A DNA stretch of 32,000 bases from contig JASBSB010000006.1 of NCBI GenBank assembly GCA_030149205.1, forward strand, positions 510,001 through 542,000. The letters are read 5' to 3'. The notes under the pieces were generated by a model that saw nothing but the letters and a program-made list of their open reading frames with translations, did not search any database and was not told the origin of the DNA. This DNA comes from Candidatus Heimdallarchaeota archaeon. GTDB lineage: Archaea; Asgardarchaeota; Heimdallarchaeia; Heimdallarchaeales; Kariarchaeaceae. A program made the translations under genes and the position numbers. Of this stretch, positions 1 through 8,126 are shown piece by piece. Each line of letters begins with the position of its first letter. Position 1 is the stretch's first letter.

Positions 1-237
1 TTCTATATGACCAAAGTGCCCCGGACAGCCACCGATCCTATTTCCACAGGTAGTACATCTGGTACCAGGGTCTATCGTCCCTAATGCCGAATCCATTAAC
101 CCATGAGGAATTGGTGTCCCATCCTCGTCAAATGTGTCTGCTGTAATAATACGTTGGACACTCATCTTTCGGATTTCATCTGGTGATAAAAGTCCGAACC
201 TTATTGCTGCAATAGATTTAGGTAAATTGTAAGCCAT
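1..237 (-). CDS. rpoA1: DNA-directed RNA polymerase subunit A' (Rpo1N), N-terminal 79 codons, runs off the window start
   Basis: Not in the ORF track. Manual translation from ATG at 235-237 gives [79 protein letters not shown]. It contains the [13 protein letters not shown] and CxxC...CPGHFGHIE clamp zinc motifs of the largest RNAP subunit. Confidence 0.97.
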
Positions 238-423
238 GTCACACCCACGGAATTGTGATTGAAAAAAAAAAGCTCTTCGAGACAATTTGAAGAACTTTTA
301 GATATATCTTAACCTATTGGAGAATCAATTTTATTAAAGTATTAAGATGCCTCGCGCATAAAGTTAGGCATAAAAACCCTTTTTTTATGAAAGAAACTTT
401 TAACCAAATTCAAGAGAAATTTA

Positions 424-1035
424 TCATTCTTTTGTCTTAAGTTTCTCCTTTTCTTCTTTTGCCTTTTCTCGTTGAAGAATAAAGCTATGAGTAAACTGAT
501 AAAGCCACTCCATAATTTCTAACGATACAGATGGCTTGTTCTCAAATACATTCCAACCCCTATCATAAATTCGATTCAAACTCAGAGATTCAATAATTTG
601 GGAACGGCTTAAAGACCCTATTTGAGTAGTCTCTGGAATTACTATCGCAAGTGGTAAGGCCTTATCCTCGGTTTGCCAAATAAAATCTTTCCAAAAGGAT
701 TTCCTGATTTCTATCACTAAATCATCATCGACATCAAGATTTAGAACAATAGCATCAACTGAACTATTAGAGAAATTTTTCTTCCATTTGGAAAAGGATT
801 CGACTTCTTCAACCAACCATTCCGTCTTATCGTCAGAGGATTCATTTAATGAATCAAACAGACTTTTTGGCTTTCCAACCTTAAGATATAGGATTTTAGG
901 ATGGATGATTGAATACTTATTAAAGGCGAATCGAAGAGTATCCATAATTGAAATATTAAATAGACTTATAATAACTCTTCTTTTTGAATCCCAATGAAGA
1001 ATTAAAGTATTTTCATTAAAGGTTTTTATTAACAT
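424..1035 (-). CDS. Hypothetical protein, probable degenerate Arf-like small-GTPase fold (pseudo-GTPase)
   Basis: 203-aa ORF. The C-terminal half aligns by eye with Arf (WKKNFSNSSVDAIVLNLD; LPLAIV; GSLSRSQIIESLSLNRIYDRGWNVF; MEWL), but the G1, G3 and G4 motifs are absent. Confidence 0.6.
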   Translation of the reverse strand: MLIKTFNENTLILHWDSKRRVIISLFNISIMDTLRFAFNKYSIIHPKILYLKVGKPKSLFDSLNESSDDKTEWLVEEVESFSKWKKNFSNSSVDAIVLNLDVDDDLVIEIRKSFWKDFIWQTEDKALPLAIVIPETTQIGSLSRSQIIESLSLNRIYDRGWNVFENKPSVSLEIMEWLYQFTHSFILQREKAKEEKEKLKTKE

Positions 1036-1354: not shown

Positions 1355-1993
1355 GTGAATAAGAAAAGAATAACTGTAATTTGTTTCCTTATTATTTTGA
1401 CTTTTTTAATCTCTCATTCACAAGCAACAGCCTATTCTGCAACGAGAGGAGTTGAACTCGGTGATACAATCAGGCTCGCATATAAGGGTGTGTTTAAGAA
1501 TGGAACAATTTTTGACCAAAACCAAAATGCTGTATTCAAGAATCTGCAATACGGAAATTATATTGATGGTTTTGTCACCAATGTGCTTGGAATGAAAATT
1601 GGAGAGTCTAAAACTTTTGAAGTTCCTCCATCTCAGGGGTACACTCAAAAAGGTCACAAATTATATGGACTTACCCTAATTTTCACTGTAAAGATACTTG
1701 GGGTACAGGGTTACACTAGTGCCGCTCCTCAATCGTCTGGTCCTAACATTCTAAGTCAGACATTTACAGTGATCGCGTGGATTGGGGGTATCATTCTTGC
1801 CCCAATAGTTGGTTATAGAGGTTATGAATATTTTAAAAACTCCACAGTTATAAACAAAAAGATTAATGTGTGTTCTGTATGTGGTGATAAGTCAGACGGT
1901 ATCTGTGCAAGTTGTGGTTTTCCATACTGCAGATCAGATTTTAGAAAGGGTTGCCCAAACTGTCATGCAAACACGTTCAAGCCTAAGTCCTAA
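1355..1993 (+). CDS. Membrane-anchored FKBP-type peptidyl-prolyl isomerase with signal peptide, one TM helix and a C-terminal Cys-rich zinc finger
   Basis: GTG start. Basic-hydrophobic N-terminus with an AxA site (QATA). FKBP core GDTIRLAYKGVFKNGTIFD...YIDGF...GMKIGESKTFEVPPSQGY...LIFTVKIL. TM segment FTVIAWIGGIILAPIVGY. Seven Cys in the last 40 aa. Confidence 0.85.
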   Translation: MNKKRITVICFLIILTFLISHSQATAYSATRGVELGDTIRLAYKGVFKNGTIFDQNQNAVFKNLQYGNYIDGFVTNVLGMKIGESKTFEVPPSQGYTQKGHKLYGLTLIFTVKILGVQGYTSAAPQSSGPNILSQTFTVIAWIGGIILAPIVGYRGYEYFKNSTVINKKINVCSVCGDKSDGICASCGFPYCRSDFRKGCPNCHANTFKPKS

Positions 1994-2056
1994 AATATAA
2001 TATCCTCATGTATACAACTACAATTTTTTTAAGTATAAGCATTATTTGGTAAACTG

Positions 2057-2788
2057 TTGAAGAAAAAGATTGAACTACGTTCTCCCCATAGGAAAAGAGA
2101 GATGAGAACTTTTCCAATCAATGTTATTGACATAGATATGCTAAATCCTCATGAAATGATAATTGAAAGCGAGTTAGAGTTTGTTATTGAAGATTTAAAA
2201 AAAAATAAGATTTTATGGTATCCAATTGTCATTGACAAGAAATCTAAGATTGTGTTAGATGGACATCATAGGTTCGAAGCTCTCAAAAGACTTGGATTCA
2301 AGAAAATACCTGTGATTGAACTTGATTATCAAGATGAGGATTTGATACAGGTCGACACCTGGTATCCTATTATTAAGGTAGAATTGACAAAGTTTCTTGA
2401 AGAATTGAAAGAACTTGGCTTTATTTTCTCACCACTTGTAAAAATTGAAAACTCCCTTCTTCAGGATTTGTCTAAACTAAAATCTAGAGATATTACAGCA
2501 ATTATACATAACAACAAACTCCAATGTCATGTTAAGGGTGATAGAGAGAAAATCTTTCAGCTCATTAACAAAAAATACCTAGAGGGAATAATATACACAG
2601 ATTCTCAAGAGTTATCAATAAAACATAGTGACTTGAATACCACCTCAGTGATTTCTTGGGGATATACAAAGAAGGAAATTGTGCAATTAGCACTAAAGGG
2701 CAGAACATTTTTACCAAAAACAACTCGTCATACCATCAAATACCAATATCAAAGAATTGATTTCAATATTGATGAATTAACAACTTAA
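2057..2788 (+). CDS. serK: ADP-dependent L-serine kinase (SerK family, ParB/Srx fold)
   Basis: 243 aa. Motifs PHE..IESELE, W.PI, DGHHR, LG.KKIP..ELDY, TWYP and C-terminal PKTTRH match Thermococcales SerK as I recall it. The start is TTG 2057 or ATG 2102. Confidence 0.8.
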   Translation: MKKKIELRSPHRKREMRTFPINVIDIDMLNPHEMIIESELEFVIEDLKKNKILWYPIVIDKKSKIVLDGHHRFEALKRLGFKKIPVIELDYQDEDLIQVDTWYPIIKVELTKFLEELKELGFIFSPLVKIENSLLQDLSKLKSRDITAIIHNNKLQCHVKGDREKIFQLINKKYLEGIIYTDSQELSIKHSDLNTTSVISWGYTKKEIVQLALKGRTFLPKTTRHTIKYQYQRIDFNIDELTT

Positions 2789-2865: not shown

Positions 2866-4410
2866 ATGGTAACAATAGGGAAATTAATGGAGGATGGTTA
2901 CGACGGTTGTTCCATTAGATCAATTATGACGGATCTGTCATTTCGTTCCCGTGTACTTTCAGATAATACAGTCAGAGGAAATGATGAATCAAAGAAGTTA
3001 GTAATGGATAAGATTGCAGTCGGTGGAAAAGTCCTACTAACTGGCCCTACAGGAGAAGCTAAGACTCTCTTCGCCAGGGTACTACTTAATCATATTACCA
3101 GAGAAATCAATACTAAGAAGTATCATATAAAAACAAGTCCATTTTTGGAAGATGCTGGATATATTATCAAAGTTATACAAAATTATGATAAAAATATTTT
3201 TAGTTCAATAGCTGTACTTCAAAGTCTTTCCCCATATAGTAGAATTGCTATTGAGAGTGTACTATCTGATGCTACAACAAAGGTAAATCTTGATAATACA
3301 GAACAACTAATAAAACTTGGAAAGAAAGTTCCTGAGGCATTGATGGAGTTAGAAGCTGAAAAAACCTTGGTGAGAACTGCACAGATTGACCCAAGAAATG
3401 ACCCTGATTCTTTGTATATGCTTCTTGCAGGTGTTGAAAACTTAGAGCAATTATTTAGTAAGGAAAGTGAAACAACATTTCACCATACAACTCATAAAGT
3501 TGGATCATTATCCCAAGGATTTCTTATAGTTAATGAGATACAGAGATTACACCTATCTTTGCTGGAGTCTCTTATGGGGTTCCTGGAGGATCCTGAGGGT
3601 ATAAAATACAACCTTGCAGGTCAACCAATTTACGTCGATGGAGCAATAATTTTTACTTCCAATGCACCACTAACTGTATTCGGAGAAGAGTCACAACCTA
3701 TAATCAACCGTATTCCTGAAGTACTGTGGCCAGCACGTAATATTGAGGATAGAATTTCAATAGTTCAAGATATGTTTGAAGAACATCTGGTTTTACAAAG
3801 AGCAAATATCGTTGCTAATCCTACCTTAATTCAAATGTATGAACTAACTGGAATGGGGAAAAATGACTTTATTTCTAAATTAGCCATTGAATTTGTAGCA
3901 ACACTTGCTGGTGAATCAATACCTAACTCATTAAAGAATCTCAGAGGAAGATCAGAGAACAGAAACACACGTGCAGAGTTCTATTCTGGCCTTGATGAAA
4001 TTCACAACCCTCAAAGGAGCCCACATATTGACCTGCGTACCTTGAATAACGCAATTGGAGAGATAGTTATTAGGGCTACTGAGGATATAACCACTGAGGG
4101 GAATATTTTAACCTTAGAAAGTGTCCAGAAGACTTTAGAGCTTTATGATATTTCACCCACACTAATTAACAATGCACTTCAGTCAATCAAGTTAAACCTC
4201 AGGAATCATATTAGAGAAGGTGAGAGCGCAATTAAGGTGGAGGATGTTTCTGAAGAACTAGACCGGTTAACCTCTCTTACTGAGCAAGACCTGATTTCAA
4301 TCATCATGAGCTATGAATCCCTTGAAGGAAAAGATAAGAAGGATGTTGATGAGATTTTGACTAAGCTTAAACCAAGCTACGAATCCTTATTAGAAGTAGC
4401 ATACTTATAA
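2866..4410 (+). CDS. AAA+ ATPase, chelatase/MoxR-related (Rv0958-like family with NE-type Walker B)
   Basis: Walker A GPTGEAKT, Walker B variant FLIVNE, sensor-1 TSN, Arg finger PIINRI. The N-terminal TIGKL..GY..SI pattern resembles the actinobacterial Rv0958 chelatase-like family. A vWA gene follows. Confidence 0.8.
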   Translation: MVTIGKLMEDGYDGCSIRSIMTDLSFRSRVLSDNTVRGNDESKKLVMDKIAVGGKVLLTGPTGEAKTLFARVLLNHITREINTKKYHIKTSPFLEDAGYIIKVIQNYDKNIFSSIAVLQSLSPYSRIAIESVLSDATTKVNLDNTEQLIKLGKKVPEALMELEAEKTLVRTAQIDPRNDPDSLYMLLAGVENLEQLFSKESETTFHHTTHKVGSLSQGFLIVNEIQRLHLSLLESLMGFLEDPEGIKYNLAGQPIYVDGAIIFTSNAPLTVFGEESQPIINRIPEVLWPARNIEDRISIVQDMFEEHLVLQRANIVANPTLIQMYELTGMGKNDFISKLAIEFVATLAGESIPNSLKNLRGRSENRNTRAEFYSGLDEIHNPQRSPHIDLRTLNNAIGEIVIRATEDITTEGNILTLESVQKTLELYDISPTLINNALQSIKLNLRNHIREGESAIKVEDVSEELDRLTSLTEQDLISIIMSYESLEGKDKKDVDEILTKLKPSYESLLEVAYL

Positions 4411-4421
4411 GAGGAATTTAA

Positions 4422-5801
4422 ATGCCTCACAGGATCAAATGGTTAACAGAAGCACATTATCAGGATCCATTGGTAGACTATGGGTCAACTGAATTTGTAT
4501 TACAGTTTGAGAATGCTGCAGATCTGTTACAAAAATGGAGAAATCCTAAACTAGGAAGATCATCAAGAGAAGGAACGGTTATTCGATTAGCAAATGAGGC
4601 TAATCGTACGATAACAACCATTGAGAATACGCTTCTGACAACCTCATTAGATGAGAAAACAGAGAGAGACTTGATCGAACAACTAAAAATTTTGAACTTT
4701 ATGTTGAACTTTACCCTTCCTGAGGCACTGGAATTAATCAATACCGACCAGTTGCTTTCTATTGAAGATGTGTTAAAATTCATACAAAAACATCTTAACC
4801 TTATGCAACAAGAAATTCAGATAGACGTAGGAATGGCTCAGGGGATACTGAACCAATTAAAGGATATTACTGACATCGAAATAAAGGATCAGTTTGGTAG
4901 GTCACGAAAAGTTAATCGAGATGAAGTGTTGGATGTTTTAGGAAGGACATTGGCAAATTTGATCATACGACAGTCATCTCTCAGACCTGTAGACCAGGTT
5001 GATATCAAACCTCGAGGTAAGCTACTGCTAAAAGAGACATTTAAAGCAGCTGTGTTAAGAACCTCTCGAATACCACCAGATGAGGTAATTTCAGATGATA
5101 TAAGAGTTGTAAATCAGGATAGGCTTTCATTGATTTACTTTATTGTAGATGTAAGTCAATCTATGTCAATACCAGTGTTTTCAGGAGGGCTCACAAGATT
5201 AGATGGCGCACTACTCACCTCACTAGGAATGTTTTATTATTTCAATACAGTAAACAGACGGAAACGTCGATCATTTGATACTTTTAAGATGCATCTTGTT
5301 CCTGTGACCAAACTTCCTTATGTGATAGAAGACAAGAGAAAATTGGAAGATTTTCTCTATAATGCTGAGGCAAAGGGAAAAACAAGATTGGTGCATGCTT
5401 TAAATGCAGTACATAATCATGTGAAATCCTATCAAAAAAACAATGATTTTGATGTTCAGGTAATTGTCCTAACAGATGGAAGACCAAATGTCCCCTTTGA
5501 GGGAAGAGTCCCAGGTGTTAAAAATAAGTTCCTAAATGAATATTTAAATGAATCTACCACAAACGTAGATACCAAGACCTGTATGCTTCAGCTTAACCAG
5601 TTTTTCAACTATTTAAAAAGAAACACAATCCGAGAATGGGATATTTCATATTTCCTGATGGCACCAGAAAAATTTAGGAATTCTGACCTGTTTAAGGACA
5701 CTCAGGTAATGTTAACAGGAATAACAAAACCAGTATTAGTTGATCCAACACAGATAGAAAAGCTTGGTGCAACTATTATTAGGAATATGGTGATGGGCTG
5801 A
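4422..5801 (+). CDS. von Willebrand factor A domain protein
   Basis: Intact MIDAS (FIVDVSQS, GKT, VLTDG) in the C-terminal half, preceded by LKETFKAAVLR, a segment typical of CoxE/ChlD-like vWA partners. Helical N-terminal half. Confidence 0.9.
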   Translation: MPHRIKWLTEAHYQDPLVDYGSTEFVLQFENAADLLQKWRNPKLGRSSREGTVIRLANEANRTITTIENTLLTTSLDEKTERDLIEQLKILNFMLNFTLPEALELINTDQLLSIEDVLKFIQKHLNLMQQEIQIDVGMAQGILNQLKDITDIEIKDQFGRSRKVNRDEVLDVLGRTLANLIIRQSSLRPVDQVDIKPRGKLLLKETFKAAVLRTSRIPPDEVISDDIRVVNQDRLSLIYFIVDVSQSMSIPVFSGGLTRLDGALLTSLGMFYYFNTVNRRKRRSFDTFKMHLVPVTKLPYVIEDKRKLEDFLYNAEAKGKTRLVHALNAVHNHVKSYQKNNDFDVQVIVLTDGRPNVPFEGRVPGVKNKFLNEYLNESTTNVDTKTCMLQLNQFFNYLKRNTIREWDISYFLMAPEKFRNSDLFKDTQVMLTGITKPVLVDPTQIEKLGATIIRNMVMG

Positions 5802-7318
5802 TGTTAGAACTAAAACAAGAATTTCTTGAAGCATATTTAGAAGCAAGAAAAGAGTTGAAAGAATTAATTGGAAAGGATCCGTCAGATTATGTTGTTGCTT
5901 TATTTATAGATTCACAAATTTATGATTCTGTACTAATGCAAACCTTACAAGGAGAGACACCCCATGCATTATTATCAACCAATGAATTAGAGCTATTACG
6001 GGAGATTAAGGATAATAAAAAGATTGTCCCTAATGGTATAGATCTATTTTTTGGATCTAAAAAACCAAGGATCTATCTGCCCAGTAACAGATTTAAATTG
6101 TCCAAGCAGGTGTTAAAAGCTAAATTAGTTCAGTTGCTTGCAATGGCAACTCTCTGTGAAAATAGCATGTCTAGATTTCCGACCCTTTTAGAACAGATAT
6201 ATAGAAATGATTCTATCATTAAAGAACTTTTTTCAAATAATGTATTCGAGTTGATCAAAGAGAGAGGAACTCCATGGGCATGGCAATATTTCCAAGATTT
6301 TGTTGCAACCATGAGATTGCTAGCAATTTATGGGTTTGATGATTTTTATGTTCCACCGAACACAGTTAGGAAAACTTCAGTCTTCTATAACTTTTTACTT
6401 GAAATAAAGGATATTAACAAGGAGAGGGCCCAACTCACAAGAAAACTTCCTTTGTTTGATCTTGTACTTGTTGGATTTGGTCATAAGGTATTGCGGACAT
6501 ACATAAACTCCTTACCTGAGAAAGTCCAGGAAGGGGTGGTTCCACAATTAAAAGCTAATCTCGGTCAACCAATTGGAGAGTTAGGTTCAATGTTTTTTGA
6601 TCTCTTGTCTGAATTAGAGGAAAATAAAGATAAAAACATCTTGGAGATAGCTACTGACTTAAAAAGTGATTATGACCTTGTACGTCACTGGAATAGGAAA
6701 GAAACTAAGCAATTCGTAGAAGAACTAAGAGAAAAATCAAGCCAAGAGGCAATTCATTGGCATTCATACCGAAATGGCTATTGGACTGACCTTTGGCCAC
6801 TTAGAGCTCGAACCTTTGATCAGGTCGCTGCATATATTGGAAAGATTCAAAGGAAAAATATGAGTCTTTTAGCAGATATATTGGAAGATAAACCAGAAGT
6901 AGAATATCATGGAAGTATAGAACTCTCTGACAAGGAAGTAGTGGTATTTAGTATCAAACCTGATACAATAGGTCAAGAACAATTAATAATTCTTAGAAAT
7001 CATCTGCTTGCCAGAAAAGATGAATTTCTCACGCCCCTACCAGGATTACCTGATGTAATTGTATTTAAAAAATTTGCTGGGATGCACATTGCCTCATATA
7101 TTGGAGTAAAGAATACCGACAGATATCCAAAATCCCCATATGATTTACCATTAATAACAAGGGCAATTCAGGTATCCAAGAAAAAGGATGCTTATCTTAG
7201 TGTATTGAGAGAGGAGGAAGGAAAACTTAGTGAGACTGCAGATTATTCTAAATTAAAGGGGCTCTCTGAACCTCAACATAGAGCAATTCGATATCTCATT
7301 AGACAGGAGGACAGTTGA
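5801..7318 (+). CDS. Hypothetical protein (505 aa), third gene of the AAA-vWA operon
   Basis: Long ORF whose start overlaps the upstream stop (TGATG, shared base 5801). No family recognised with confidence. Confidence 0.85.
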   Translation: MLELKQEFLEAYLEARKELKELIGKDPSDYVVALFIDSQIYDSVLMQTLQGETPHALLSTNELELLREIKDNKKIVPNGIDLFFGSKKPRIYLPSNRFKLSKQVLKAKLVQLLAMATLCENSMSRFPTLLEQIYRNDSIIKELFSNNVFELIKERGTPWAWQYFQDFVATMRLLAIYGFDDFYVPPNTVRKTSVFYNFLLEIKDINKERAQLTRKLPLFDLVLVGFGHKVLRTYINSLPEKVQEGVVPQLKANLGQPIGELGSMFFDLLSELEENKDKNILEIATDLKSDYDLVRHWNRKETKQFVEELREKSSQEAIHWHSYRNGYWTDLWPLRARTFDQVAAYIGKIQRKNMSLLADILEDKPEVEYHGSIELSDKEVVVFSIKPDTIGQEQLIILRNHLLARKDEFLTPLPGLPDVIVFKKFAGMHIASYIGVKNTDRYPKSPYDLPLITRAIQVSKKKDAYLSVLREEEGKLSETADYSKLKGLSEPQHRAIRYLIRQEDS

Positions 7319-7319
7319 A

Positions 7320-8126
7320 ATGGGACCTTTTAAGAAAATCAATGACAATCTTCTCAGTAGAATTGCAAGAAAGAGGCTTTCTAACCAAAATAACCTAGAT
7401 AAAATATCTGCTATTCACGTTTTGATGGAAGTTGGAACAATTCAAGACTTAGAAACTCTATTGCTGAATCTTTGGAAAGAACCTACCCATGAAATCCAAA
7501 TTGAGATGCTTAAAGCCATCAAACATTTAACAAAATCATTGAATTACACAAAGGCAACTGATATTATCAAAAAATATCTTTCTACTGGTAATTTAAGAGA
7601 AAGAATGCTTGCTGTTGAATTATGTGAGCCTTTTCCACTTGTCACAAGAGAGAATATTCTATTGGAAAAATCAAAAGAAAGTGAGGATGATTTGTTATTT
7701 TTACTGGTCAGAGTTTTAAGAGGTTCAAAAGATCTTGACTTTTTAGATAGAATTATTTCACATTCCTTTACAAAAGATCTGGTTTTACGTAGAGCAATCT
7801 ATACAACCTGGTTTGAGGGTATCAGCAACCTCCCAGAGGATCAAAAGCTTTATTACGGAACTAAAAATATTCATACTCTCATTCGTGCAACCTACGAGAT
7901 GAATGATAAGGGTACTCTCCTTAATTGGGTACTTGCAAATGCTGATAGAAGTGATTTACCAGAACCAAAGGCATATCCTGAATTTATCTTTCGATATGTA
8001 ATCAGTTTAATTCATCGTTGGGAGTATGACCCAGACGTGAATCGTGCACTTCATCAGTTAATCGTTCCAGCGTATTTCACATTTGATGAGAGGAATGATG
8101 ACCTCAAAGAGTTCGTGATTGTATAA
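7320..8126 (+). CDS. HEAT-repeat (alpha-solenoid) protein
   Basis: Repeated amphipathic helix pairs with HEAT-like signatures (DKISAIHVL, EIQIEMLKAI, RERMLAVEL, VLRRAI). Starts 1 nt after the upstream stop. Confidence 0.65.
   Translation: MGPFKKINDNLLSRIARKRLSNQNNLDKISAIHVLMEVGTIQDLETLLLNLWKEPTHEIQIEMLKAIKHLTKSLNYTKATDIIKKYLSTGNLRERMLAVELCEPFPLVTRENILLEKSKESEDDLLFLLVRVLRGSKDLDFLDRIISHSFTKDLVLRRAIYTTWFEGISNLPEDQKLYYGTKNIHTLIRATYEMNDKGTLLNWVLANADRSDLPEPKAYPEFIFRYVISLIHRWEYDPDVNRALHQLIVPAYFTFDERNDDLKEFVIV

Follow-up and report, generated by a model that had tools for sequence, protein, structure and literature searches.

The closest described relatives of the protein analysed here are the Asgard ArfR/AArf GTPases (HodArfR1, 8OUK/8OUL; GerdArfR1, 8OUM/8OUN; 10.1101/2024.02.28.582541, PMC11914678), together with Arl1, Arl3 and Arf. 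In the Arf mechanism the interswitch hairpin ejects the N-terminal helix, and in ArfR this helix is needed for membrane binding (10.1101/2024.02.28.582541). The ArfR survey set aside divergent, unannotated sequences, and Rup3, a set of Heimdallarchaeia-specific small GTPases, carries expansions inside the GTPase domain (10.1101/2024.02.28.582541). The AArf survey found the G boxes well conserved, and neither of the two surveys describes the family reported below. The pseudo-GTPases for which we found descriptions, CENP-M, dynein LIC and p190RhoGAP, are eukaryotic scaffolds. CENP-M has a five-stranded small-GTPase fold in which the α1-β2 loop and β2 are deleted and the G motifs are lost, acts as a scaffold, and does not bind mant-nucleotides (PMC4080450). 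In the G domain of dynein LIC, nucleotide binding has been lost (fungi) or narrowed (human), and a conserved aromatic patch joins the domain to the AAA+ motor chain (PMC4359372). Our literature search found no paper on an archaeal pseudo-GTPase or on the operon described here.

We analysed a stretch of 32,000 nucleotides from a Heimdallarchaeota genome (hereafter the window). Its minus strand holds an open reading frame of 203 codons at 424-1035, in which a sequence-only reading had seen an Arf-like pseudo-GTPase; the frame and the segments quoted from it are present. Profile, profile-profile and fold evidence, together with the loss of the motifs across 75 orthologs, bear out the core of that proposal, an Arf-derived G-domain without GTP-binding motifs.

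The pseudo-GTPase gene and its kinship with Arf

When searched as a single sequence, the protein fell short of the Pfam cut-off for the Arf family (E 0.0058) and, across residues 84-180, matched PDB Arl1 at E 0.011. A word-index search of a 90% protein database returned no match except the protein itself, and the fold predicted from the lone sequence was of no use (pLDDT 39.7). Orthologs, which the sequence-only reading had proposed to collect, were sought in 400 Asgard genomes, among which seven Heimdallarchaeia families are labelled f1-f7. Of the 59 genomes in f1, f2, f3, f4 and f7, 57 carry the gene as a single copy, and the two without it are 86% and 64% complete; within the family and order of the window, 37 of 41 genomes searched yielded one copy. 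Searches of the 341 other Asgard genomes, comprising 24 of f5/f6 and 317 others, recovered no ortholog, and the best matches in f5/f6 were intact ArfR. Because a single copy with an open frame is kept in 57 of 59 genomes and invariant residues are retained, the ORF is real and under selection. It evolves fast, with a mean distance of 1.56 as compared with 0.56 for the neighbouring AAA+ ATPase. Some databases name the f7 orthologs 'ADP-ribosylation factor-like'.

The translation start is probably Met31 (position 945), giving a product of 173 residues. Ortholog starts point to this codon: in 56 of 75 non-redundant orthologs there are 0-1 residues before the Met31 column, and none of the 75 has the full 30 residues. 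Codon usage leaves the choice between Met1 and Met31 undecided, and a scan for bacterial promoters and terminators gave no signal over chance. The features of the locus are collected in Table 1.

Table 1. Features of the pseudo-GTPase gene and of the neighbouring operon, in window coordinates; residues are numbered from the first ATG of the longest frame.
Feature	Position	Strand	Basis
Arf-derived pseudo-GTPase gene, probable extent Met31 to stop, 173 aa	424..945	-	ortholog starts; model pLDDT 90.3
30-codon extension up to the first ATG, probably untranslated	946..1035	-	absent in full from every ortholog
N-terminal helix at residues 31-40, corresponding to the amphipathic helix of Arf; amphipathicity weak here	916..945	-	model, Arl1 alignment
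True β1, degenerate G1 and α1, residues 47-63; G54 kept, Gly-Lys-Thr positions are L59-F60-D61	847..897	-	model, alignment
β3 and degenerate G3, residues 73-80; retains the acidic residue and lacks the Gly; preceded by neither switch I nor β2	796..819	-	model, hhalign
α3 conserved patch: R111, W115 100%, position 116 Glu in 87%, W120 97%	676..705	-	ortholog alignment
Degenerate G4: PETT (residues 134-137) at the place of NKxD	625..636	-	hhalign, alignment
α4 and α4-β6 loop signature: L142, E149, S152, L153, R155, D158, R159, W161, E165; 81-100%	541..612	-	alignment
Degenerate G5, shortened by three residues and without Ser-Ala-Lys; α5 with W177 (97%)	505..543	-	hhalign, alignment
FKBP and ParB/SerK-like genes, carried along in the inversion that parts the pseudo-GTPase from its operon	1355..2788	+	
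AAA+ ATPase; in 45/55 genomes the next gene after the pseudo-GTPase	2866..4410	+	
VWA protein, intact MIDAS (DxSxS at 243, TDG at 351)	4422..5801	+	
505-aa protein, no family match; ortholog consensus Glu-less zincin-like HxxxH, later EGFA	5801..7318	+	
HEAT-repeat protein whose N-terminal helix is basic and hydrophobic; the operon ends with this gene	7320..8126	+	

With orthologs included, the kinship became clear. A profile of 47 ortholog sequences matched 87 PDB sequences at E<=1e-3, and the best 60 of these 87 all belong to the Arf family (Arl1, 3e-10; HodArfR1 in 8OUK, 4.6e-9). Aligned by hhalign to the profile of intact Asgard ArfR, it gave a probability of 98.3 with E 1.6e-14 over 113 columns, which is the kind of profile-profile match to small GTPases that the sequence-only reading had asked for; its affinity was to Arf over other Ras-superfamily groups. 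The structure model built from Met31 was confident (pLDDT 90.3). Its best 50 Foldseek matches were all Arf family (lowest E 5.4e-7), and a structure search of the Atlas returned Arf clusters only (TM 0.72). VIA-align gave Arf6, Arl13B, Arl8, Sar1 and HodArfR1 Z values of 13-14 and put SRbeta, Rag and Rab below them; the alignment with Arf6 has Z 13.8 and an rmsd of 2.5 over 138 residues, and that with 8OUL has Z 12.9. Among the candidates named beforehand, Arf, Sar1 and SRbeta, the Arf family therefore came first and SRbeta lower. The Arf likeness is beyond chance with the orthologs, given these profile values and three structure searches that place Arf first. One further candidate ortholog, P0015 (1590 aa, E 1.9e-10), was rejected as a BspA leucine-rich-repeat artefact.

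In phylogenetic trees, the pseudo-GTPase family forms one clade (100/99), which in the full tree is split together with ArfR from RasL-type GTPases at 95/87. The trees place it neither inside ArfR nor beside HodArfR1; in the C-terminal tree, three placements were compared and none was rejected (p-AU 0.11-0.24); orthology with HodArfR1 is neither shown nor rejected (p-AU 0.15). From the sequences and the model we infer that the pseudo-GTPase descends from, or is sister to, Asgard ArfR.

The intact relatives have a distribution of their own. HodArfR1 orthologs are present in 24 of 24 genomes of f5/f6 (e.g., L121:1501-2061(-) and L078:223-786(-)), are 75-79% identical to one another, match 8OUL at E 1.8e-80, and share the α3 Trp with the pseudo-GTPase. 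Because of these close orthologs, f5 and f6 are probably Hodarchaeales; f7 may be Gerdarchaeales. Most f5/f6 loci (L078, L079, L117-L137) carry a tandem of intact Arf-like GTPase genes in which the HodArfR1-type gene comes immediately after the other one. The five families that carry the pseudo-GTPase have no close HodArfR1 ortholog, the best being about 42% identical. An intact ArfR query reached only E 1e-16 to 1e-21 in f1, as compared with 1e-27 or better in the other families, and canonical ArfR may be scarce in f1; the best ArfR candidates in the genome of the window are C8:218607-219176 and C4:536864-537445.

The nucleotide site and the conserved surface

In 16 intact ArfR proteins, the Gly-Lys-Thr of G1, the Asp of G3 and the Asn-Lys-Asp of G4 are 100% conserved and the Ser of G5 is 94% conserved. 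At these positions, the consensus of the 75 pseudo-GTPase orthologs retains none of the original residues except at G3, where Glu or Asp is kept and the Gly is lost. The G1 motif GxxxxGK[ST] (GLDxAGKT in Arf) was found at its place in none of the orthologs. In the model, β1 comprises residues 47-53 and α1 starts at residue 60, so that G1 falls on residues 54-61, with G54 as the first P-loop Gly, conserved in 95% of the orthologs; an Arg near the position of the P-loop Lys is retained in f2 and f7. Neither the Lys nor the Asp of G4 is a consensus residue in the 75 orthologs, the G4 Asp and G5 are lost everywhere, the G4 loop holds an Asn in 71%, and the remaining columns of the G1-G5 loops vary across the family. 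Matches to an NKxD pattern occur in 23 orthologs and were rejected as G4, all of them lying outside it. We also dropped a P-loop four residues short with a retained Gly-Lys (G54-K55): without gaps G54 aligns with the first Gly, and the modelled α1 does not begin until residue 60.

These alignments uphold several registers of the sequence-only reading and correct one. Its placements of G3 (residues 73-80, which cover β3/G3), G4, β4 and the α4-β6-α5 segment were all recovered by hhalign or the alignment. The gap-free G1 match that it had drawn at residues 20-34 falls mostly inside the 30-residue extension, and its end belongs to the N-terminal helix. Its statement that all motifs were erased holds for G2-G5 and for most of G1; the first G1 Gly survives. 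It had also expected a six-stranded G-domain. The model of the window protein formally departs from this with five strands and no β2, and the alignment to ArfR has a 21-residue gap over switch I/β2, a degeneration of the G-domain fold of the kind seen in CENP-M. The span from α1 to α3 is 61 residues in the window protein, 71 in the median ortholog and 85 in ArfR; since many orthologs are longer here, the five-strand model need not hold for all subfamilies. Taken together, the sequences and the model indicate that the protein very probably does not bind nucleotide. Because the interswitch hairpin is missing, ejection of an N-terminal helix as in Arf would be impossible. Since G1-G5 and the switches are lost, the protein should not be filed as an Arf GTPase, judging from the alignment and the model.

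The family has instead conserved a different set of residues. W115, W120, E149, S152, R155, D158 and R159 are 92-100% conserved among the orthologs (D158 99%, E149 93%), which share 20-40% identity, and are variable in intact ArfR, whereas L153 and W177 are common to both. By G-domain topology, we take this patch to lie on the face away from the nucleotide site, near the N-terminal helix. By analogy, it overlaps the back side of Arf1, where A136, A137 and W172 contact the AP-1 γ solenoid (PMC5540999). The simplest reading suggested by the conservation and the model is that α3, α4 and the α4-β6 loop form a binding surface, although part of the patch could be structural instead. From Met31 onwards, the ortholog profile lines up with the N-terminal helix and β1 of Arl1, and the model, which begins at Met31, has a helix at residues 3-9 of its own count with a pLDDT of about 50. 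The hydrophobic moment of this region has a family mean of 0.56, as compared with 0.46 for shuffled sequences and 0.58 for ArfR; the helix is strong in f2 (up to 1.03) and weak in f1 (0.43 here), and f7 has a short basic stretch.

The operon neighbourhood and alternative explanations

Missing from the sequence-only account of the locus was a tie to an AAA+/VWA operon that begins 1.8 kb away. In f1, f2 and f7, the pseudo-GTPase gene heads a run of genes for the AAA+ ATPase, the VWA protein, the 505-aa protein and the HEAT protein. It is present in all 55 genomes that carry the AAA+ gene, directly upstream on the same strand in 45, and across the 400 Asgard genomes the two genes have the same range. 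These 55 genomes are kin, and the count stands for one conserved association, not 55 independent tests; the co-occurrence may reflect one gain and shared inheritance. The adjacency persists in three families, between orthologs only 20-25% identical and with wholly different genes on the other flanks. On these genomic grounds, a functional coupling of the pseudo-GTPase to the operon products is likely. It is the loosest member of the operon, because it is detached in the genus of the window (G000-G003), in G009 and G013, and in f4, where it lies four genes beyond the HEAT gene. Partial correlations of the distance matrices with the pseudo-GTPase were 0.45 for the 505-aa protein, 0.28 for HEAT, 0.12 for AAA+ and -0.06 for VWA, values that come from non-independent pairs, reflect rate similarity and are a hint at most. 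A predicted complex of the 505-aa protein and HEAT (1-256) with the pseudo-GTPase (1-160) as partner scored 0.71, 0.71 and 0.69; replacing the partner gave 0.00 and 0.00 and replacing the 505-aa chain gave 0.76. The score may come from the kept chain, and the prediction counts neither for nor against an interaction.

Several features of the operon and its surroundings were noted in passing. The AAA+ ATPase has its Walker A at residue 60, with an Ala before the Lys as in MCM-type ATPases, and an Asn instead of the usual Asp before the catalytic Glu of Walker B. The 505-aa protein received no name from Pfam SpoVR, AAA_PrkA, NCBIfam, PDB or Atlas searches, and its window copy has lost both HxxxH histidines (residues about 108-120). 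Matches of the HEAT protein to adaptins are generic HEAT matches. G010, an assembly 80% complete with 6% contamination, has two copies of the HEAT gene (L155 and L165), perhaps through a binning artefact. In f7, an actin-like gene (ALP_N, MreB-like_C) stands two genes upstream of the pseudo-GTPase (L188:5920-6993, L067:10943-12001, L068:11144-12235), separated from it by one gene of 214-230 aa on the other strand. Two loci from complete genomes (L016:2885-3820, L017:15248-16183) have, about 5 kb upstream of the operon, a gene for a 312-aa Arf-like GTPase that is intact and extended at its C terminus. The deep-branching orthologs P0018 and P0019 (L185:8001-8603, L186:8001-8612) have no operon gene nearby on their metagenome contigs; one follows a thermosome gene and a gene for a 291-aa unknown, the other a gene for an 1187-aa unknown.

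With coupling to the operon likely, the question is what the pseudo-GTPase does there. It might be the client rather than a subunit of the machine: the metal site of the VWA protein would grip D158 or E149, and the AAA+ ring would then pull the protein off a membrane or partner, much as Rea1 acts on Rsa4 and Ytm1 and CbbQO on Rubisco. The intact MIDAS, the near-invariance of both acidic residues and the position of the gene directly ahead of AAA+ and VWA fit such a role. Arl1 and Arl3, however, have Asp-Arg-x-Trp at the same place, so that D158 may be inherited structure, and VWA has the lowest of the four partial correlations, with the reservation on non-independent pairs made above; we regard the client role as unlikely. 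Much the same holds for a job of its own, for example as a membrane-bound homo-oligomer or with a partner outside the operon, in which case the synteny would be an ancestral neighbourhood. Of the 55 genomes with readable contigs for both genes, 9 have the pseudo-GTPase gene standing alone (two genomes in f2 and two in f7 are unjudgeable), and P0018 and P0019 have no operon gene nearby, but an ancestral neighbourhood accords poorly with an adjacency that outlasts such divergence while the other flanks differ, and with a range that tracks the AAA+ gene.

Less probable still is an atypical binder that, like human dynein LIC1, would hold GDP, phosphate or the head group of a lipid in the former pocket without hydrolysis. 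G54, the f2 and f7 Arg close to where the P-loop Lys would be, the acidic residue at the G3 Asp and the Asn of the G4 loop could be read as remnants of a site, yet in the window protein Phe and Asp stand in for the Lys and Thr, the G4 Asp and G5 are gone, and the loop columns vary in a manner unlike a ligand site. The window itself might suggest an RNA polymerase assembly factor, akin to the GPN-loop GTPases, since the gene lies 139 bases upstream of rpoA1 (RNA polymerase A') on the same strand, and RNA polymerase genes are a few kb off in G001 and L187. We rejected this link. The pseudo-GTPase directly precedes rpoA1 in no other genome seen, and its fold is Arf-like, not GPN-like. In L187 the genes run rpoA1, msrA, ParB, FKBP, with the pseudo-GTPase and the operon next on the opposite strand; inverting the block of ParB, FKBP and pseudo-GTPase once turns this order into the layout of the window, which leaves the polymerase role very improbable. 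On a separate point, no rpoB precedes rpoA1 (window 1-285) and L187 has msrA in that place; the RNA polymerase operon is therefore split in the family of the window. A decaying pseudogene or a chance Rossmann-like fold would account for the fast evolution and for single-sequence matches under the Pfam cut-off, but hardly for an open frame in one copy in 57 genomes, the invariant residues, a confident model and Arf in first place in four kinds of search, and its probability is negligible.

Proposed role and comparison with known systems

We favour, with some reserve, the reading in which the pseudo-GTPase is a fixed, nucleotide-free binding subunit of the AAA+/VWA/zincin-like/HEAT machine and not a switch, as suggested by the sequences, the model and analogy. 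It would neither bind nor hydrolyse GTP and would not switch; the cycle would be driven by ATP turnover in the AAA+ ring, not by GTP. The α3/α4/α4-β6 patch would, with a fair degree of probability, bind one operon protein constitutively; analogy points to the HEAT protein or the 505-aa protein as the likeliest partner. More tentatively, the basic N-termini of the pseudo-GTPase and of the HEAT protein might hold the ATP-driven remodeller at the membrane. The most specific version of the proposal is speculative and, as a whole, unlikely: a frozen, nucleotide-free archaeal Arf and a HEAT solenoid, joined through the Arf back side, would together hold the AAA+/VWA remodeller at the membrane, and the frozen Arf could be a dead ortholog of HodArfR1, whose distribution it mirrors, with HodArfR1 in 24 of 24 genomes of two families and the pseudo-GTPase in the five others. 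If true, it would place an Arf-plus-solenoid unit, of the kind found in eukaryotic coats, in the archaea nearest to eukaryotes. Being small and well folded, the pseudo-GTPase also gives a way into this uncharacterised ATP-driven machine of five proteins.

Among known modules, the operon resembles PrkA/YeaG-YeaH-SpoVR/YcgB in its gene order of AAA+, VWA and zincin-like protein. It differs in the missing zincin Glu and in the added pseudo-GTPase and HEAT protein, and neither Pfam SpoVR nor AAA_PrkA matched the operon genes. With ArfR/AArf and Arl1/Arl3/Arf, its best sequence and structure matches, the pseudo-GTPase shares the core from β4 to α5, an N-terminal helix before β1, the Leu/Arg/Trp pattern of α4-β6 and the α5 Trp. 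In contrast, ArfR and Arf have G1-G5, switch I, the interswitch hairpin and nucleotide-driven helix release, none of which is present in the pseudo-GTPase family, while the invariant patch and the operon are its own. The family thus amounts to a natural experiment on which Arf surfaces matter without switching. From Rup3, as described, it is set apart by deletions in place of expansions.

Among pseudo-GTPases, the window protein model is like CENP-M in its five strands, β2 deletion and motif loss, and the family as a whole has a G-domain fold whose nucleotide motifs were lost under continued selection, as in CENP-M. CENP-M is eukaryotic, closest to Rab and part of the kinetochore, whereas the pseudo-GTPase is archaeal and Arf-like, and the resemblance is convergence, not orthology; the Atlas gives CENP-M as a look-alike by features at 0.88, which is no more than a lead, and the top fold matches do not include it. 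Dynein LIC is much larger, with insertions and a cargo-binding tail, and gave no sequence or top fold match; it docks on an AAA+ protein, and the tie of the pseudo-GTPase to its AAA+ neighbour is a genomic one. By analogy, we infer that the pseudo-GTPase works like CENP-M or the G domain of dynein LIC. An Arf-derived pseudo-GTPase across two Heimdallarchaeia orders would then show that fixed GTPase scaffolds, described in eukaryotes, existed before or beside eukaryogenesis.
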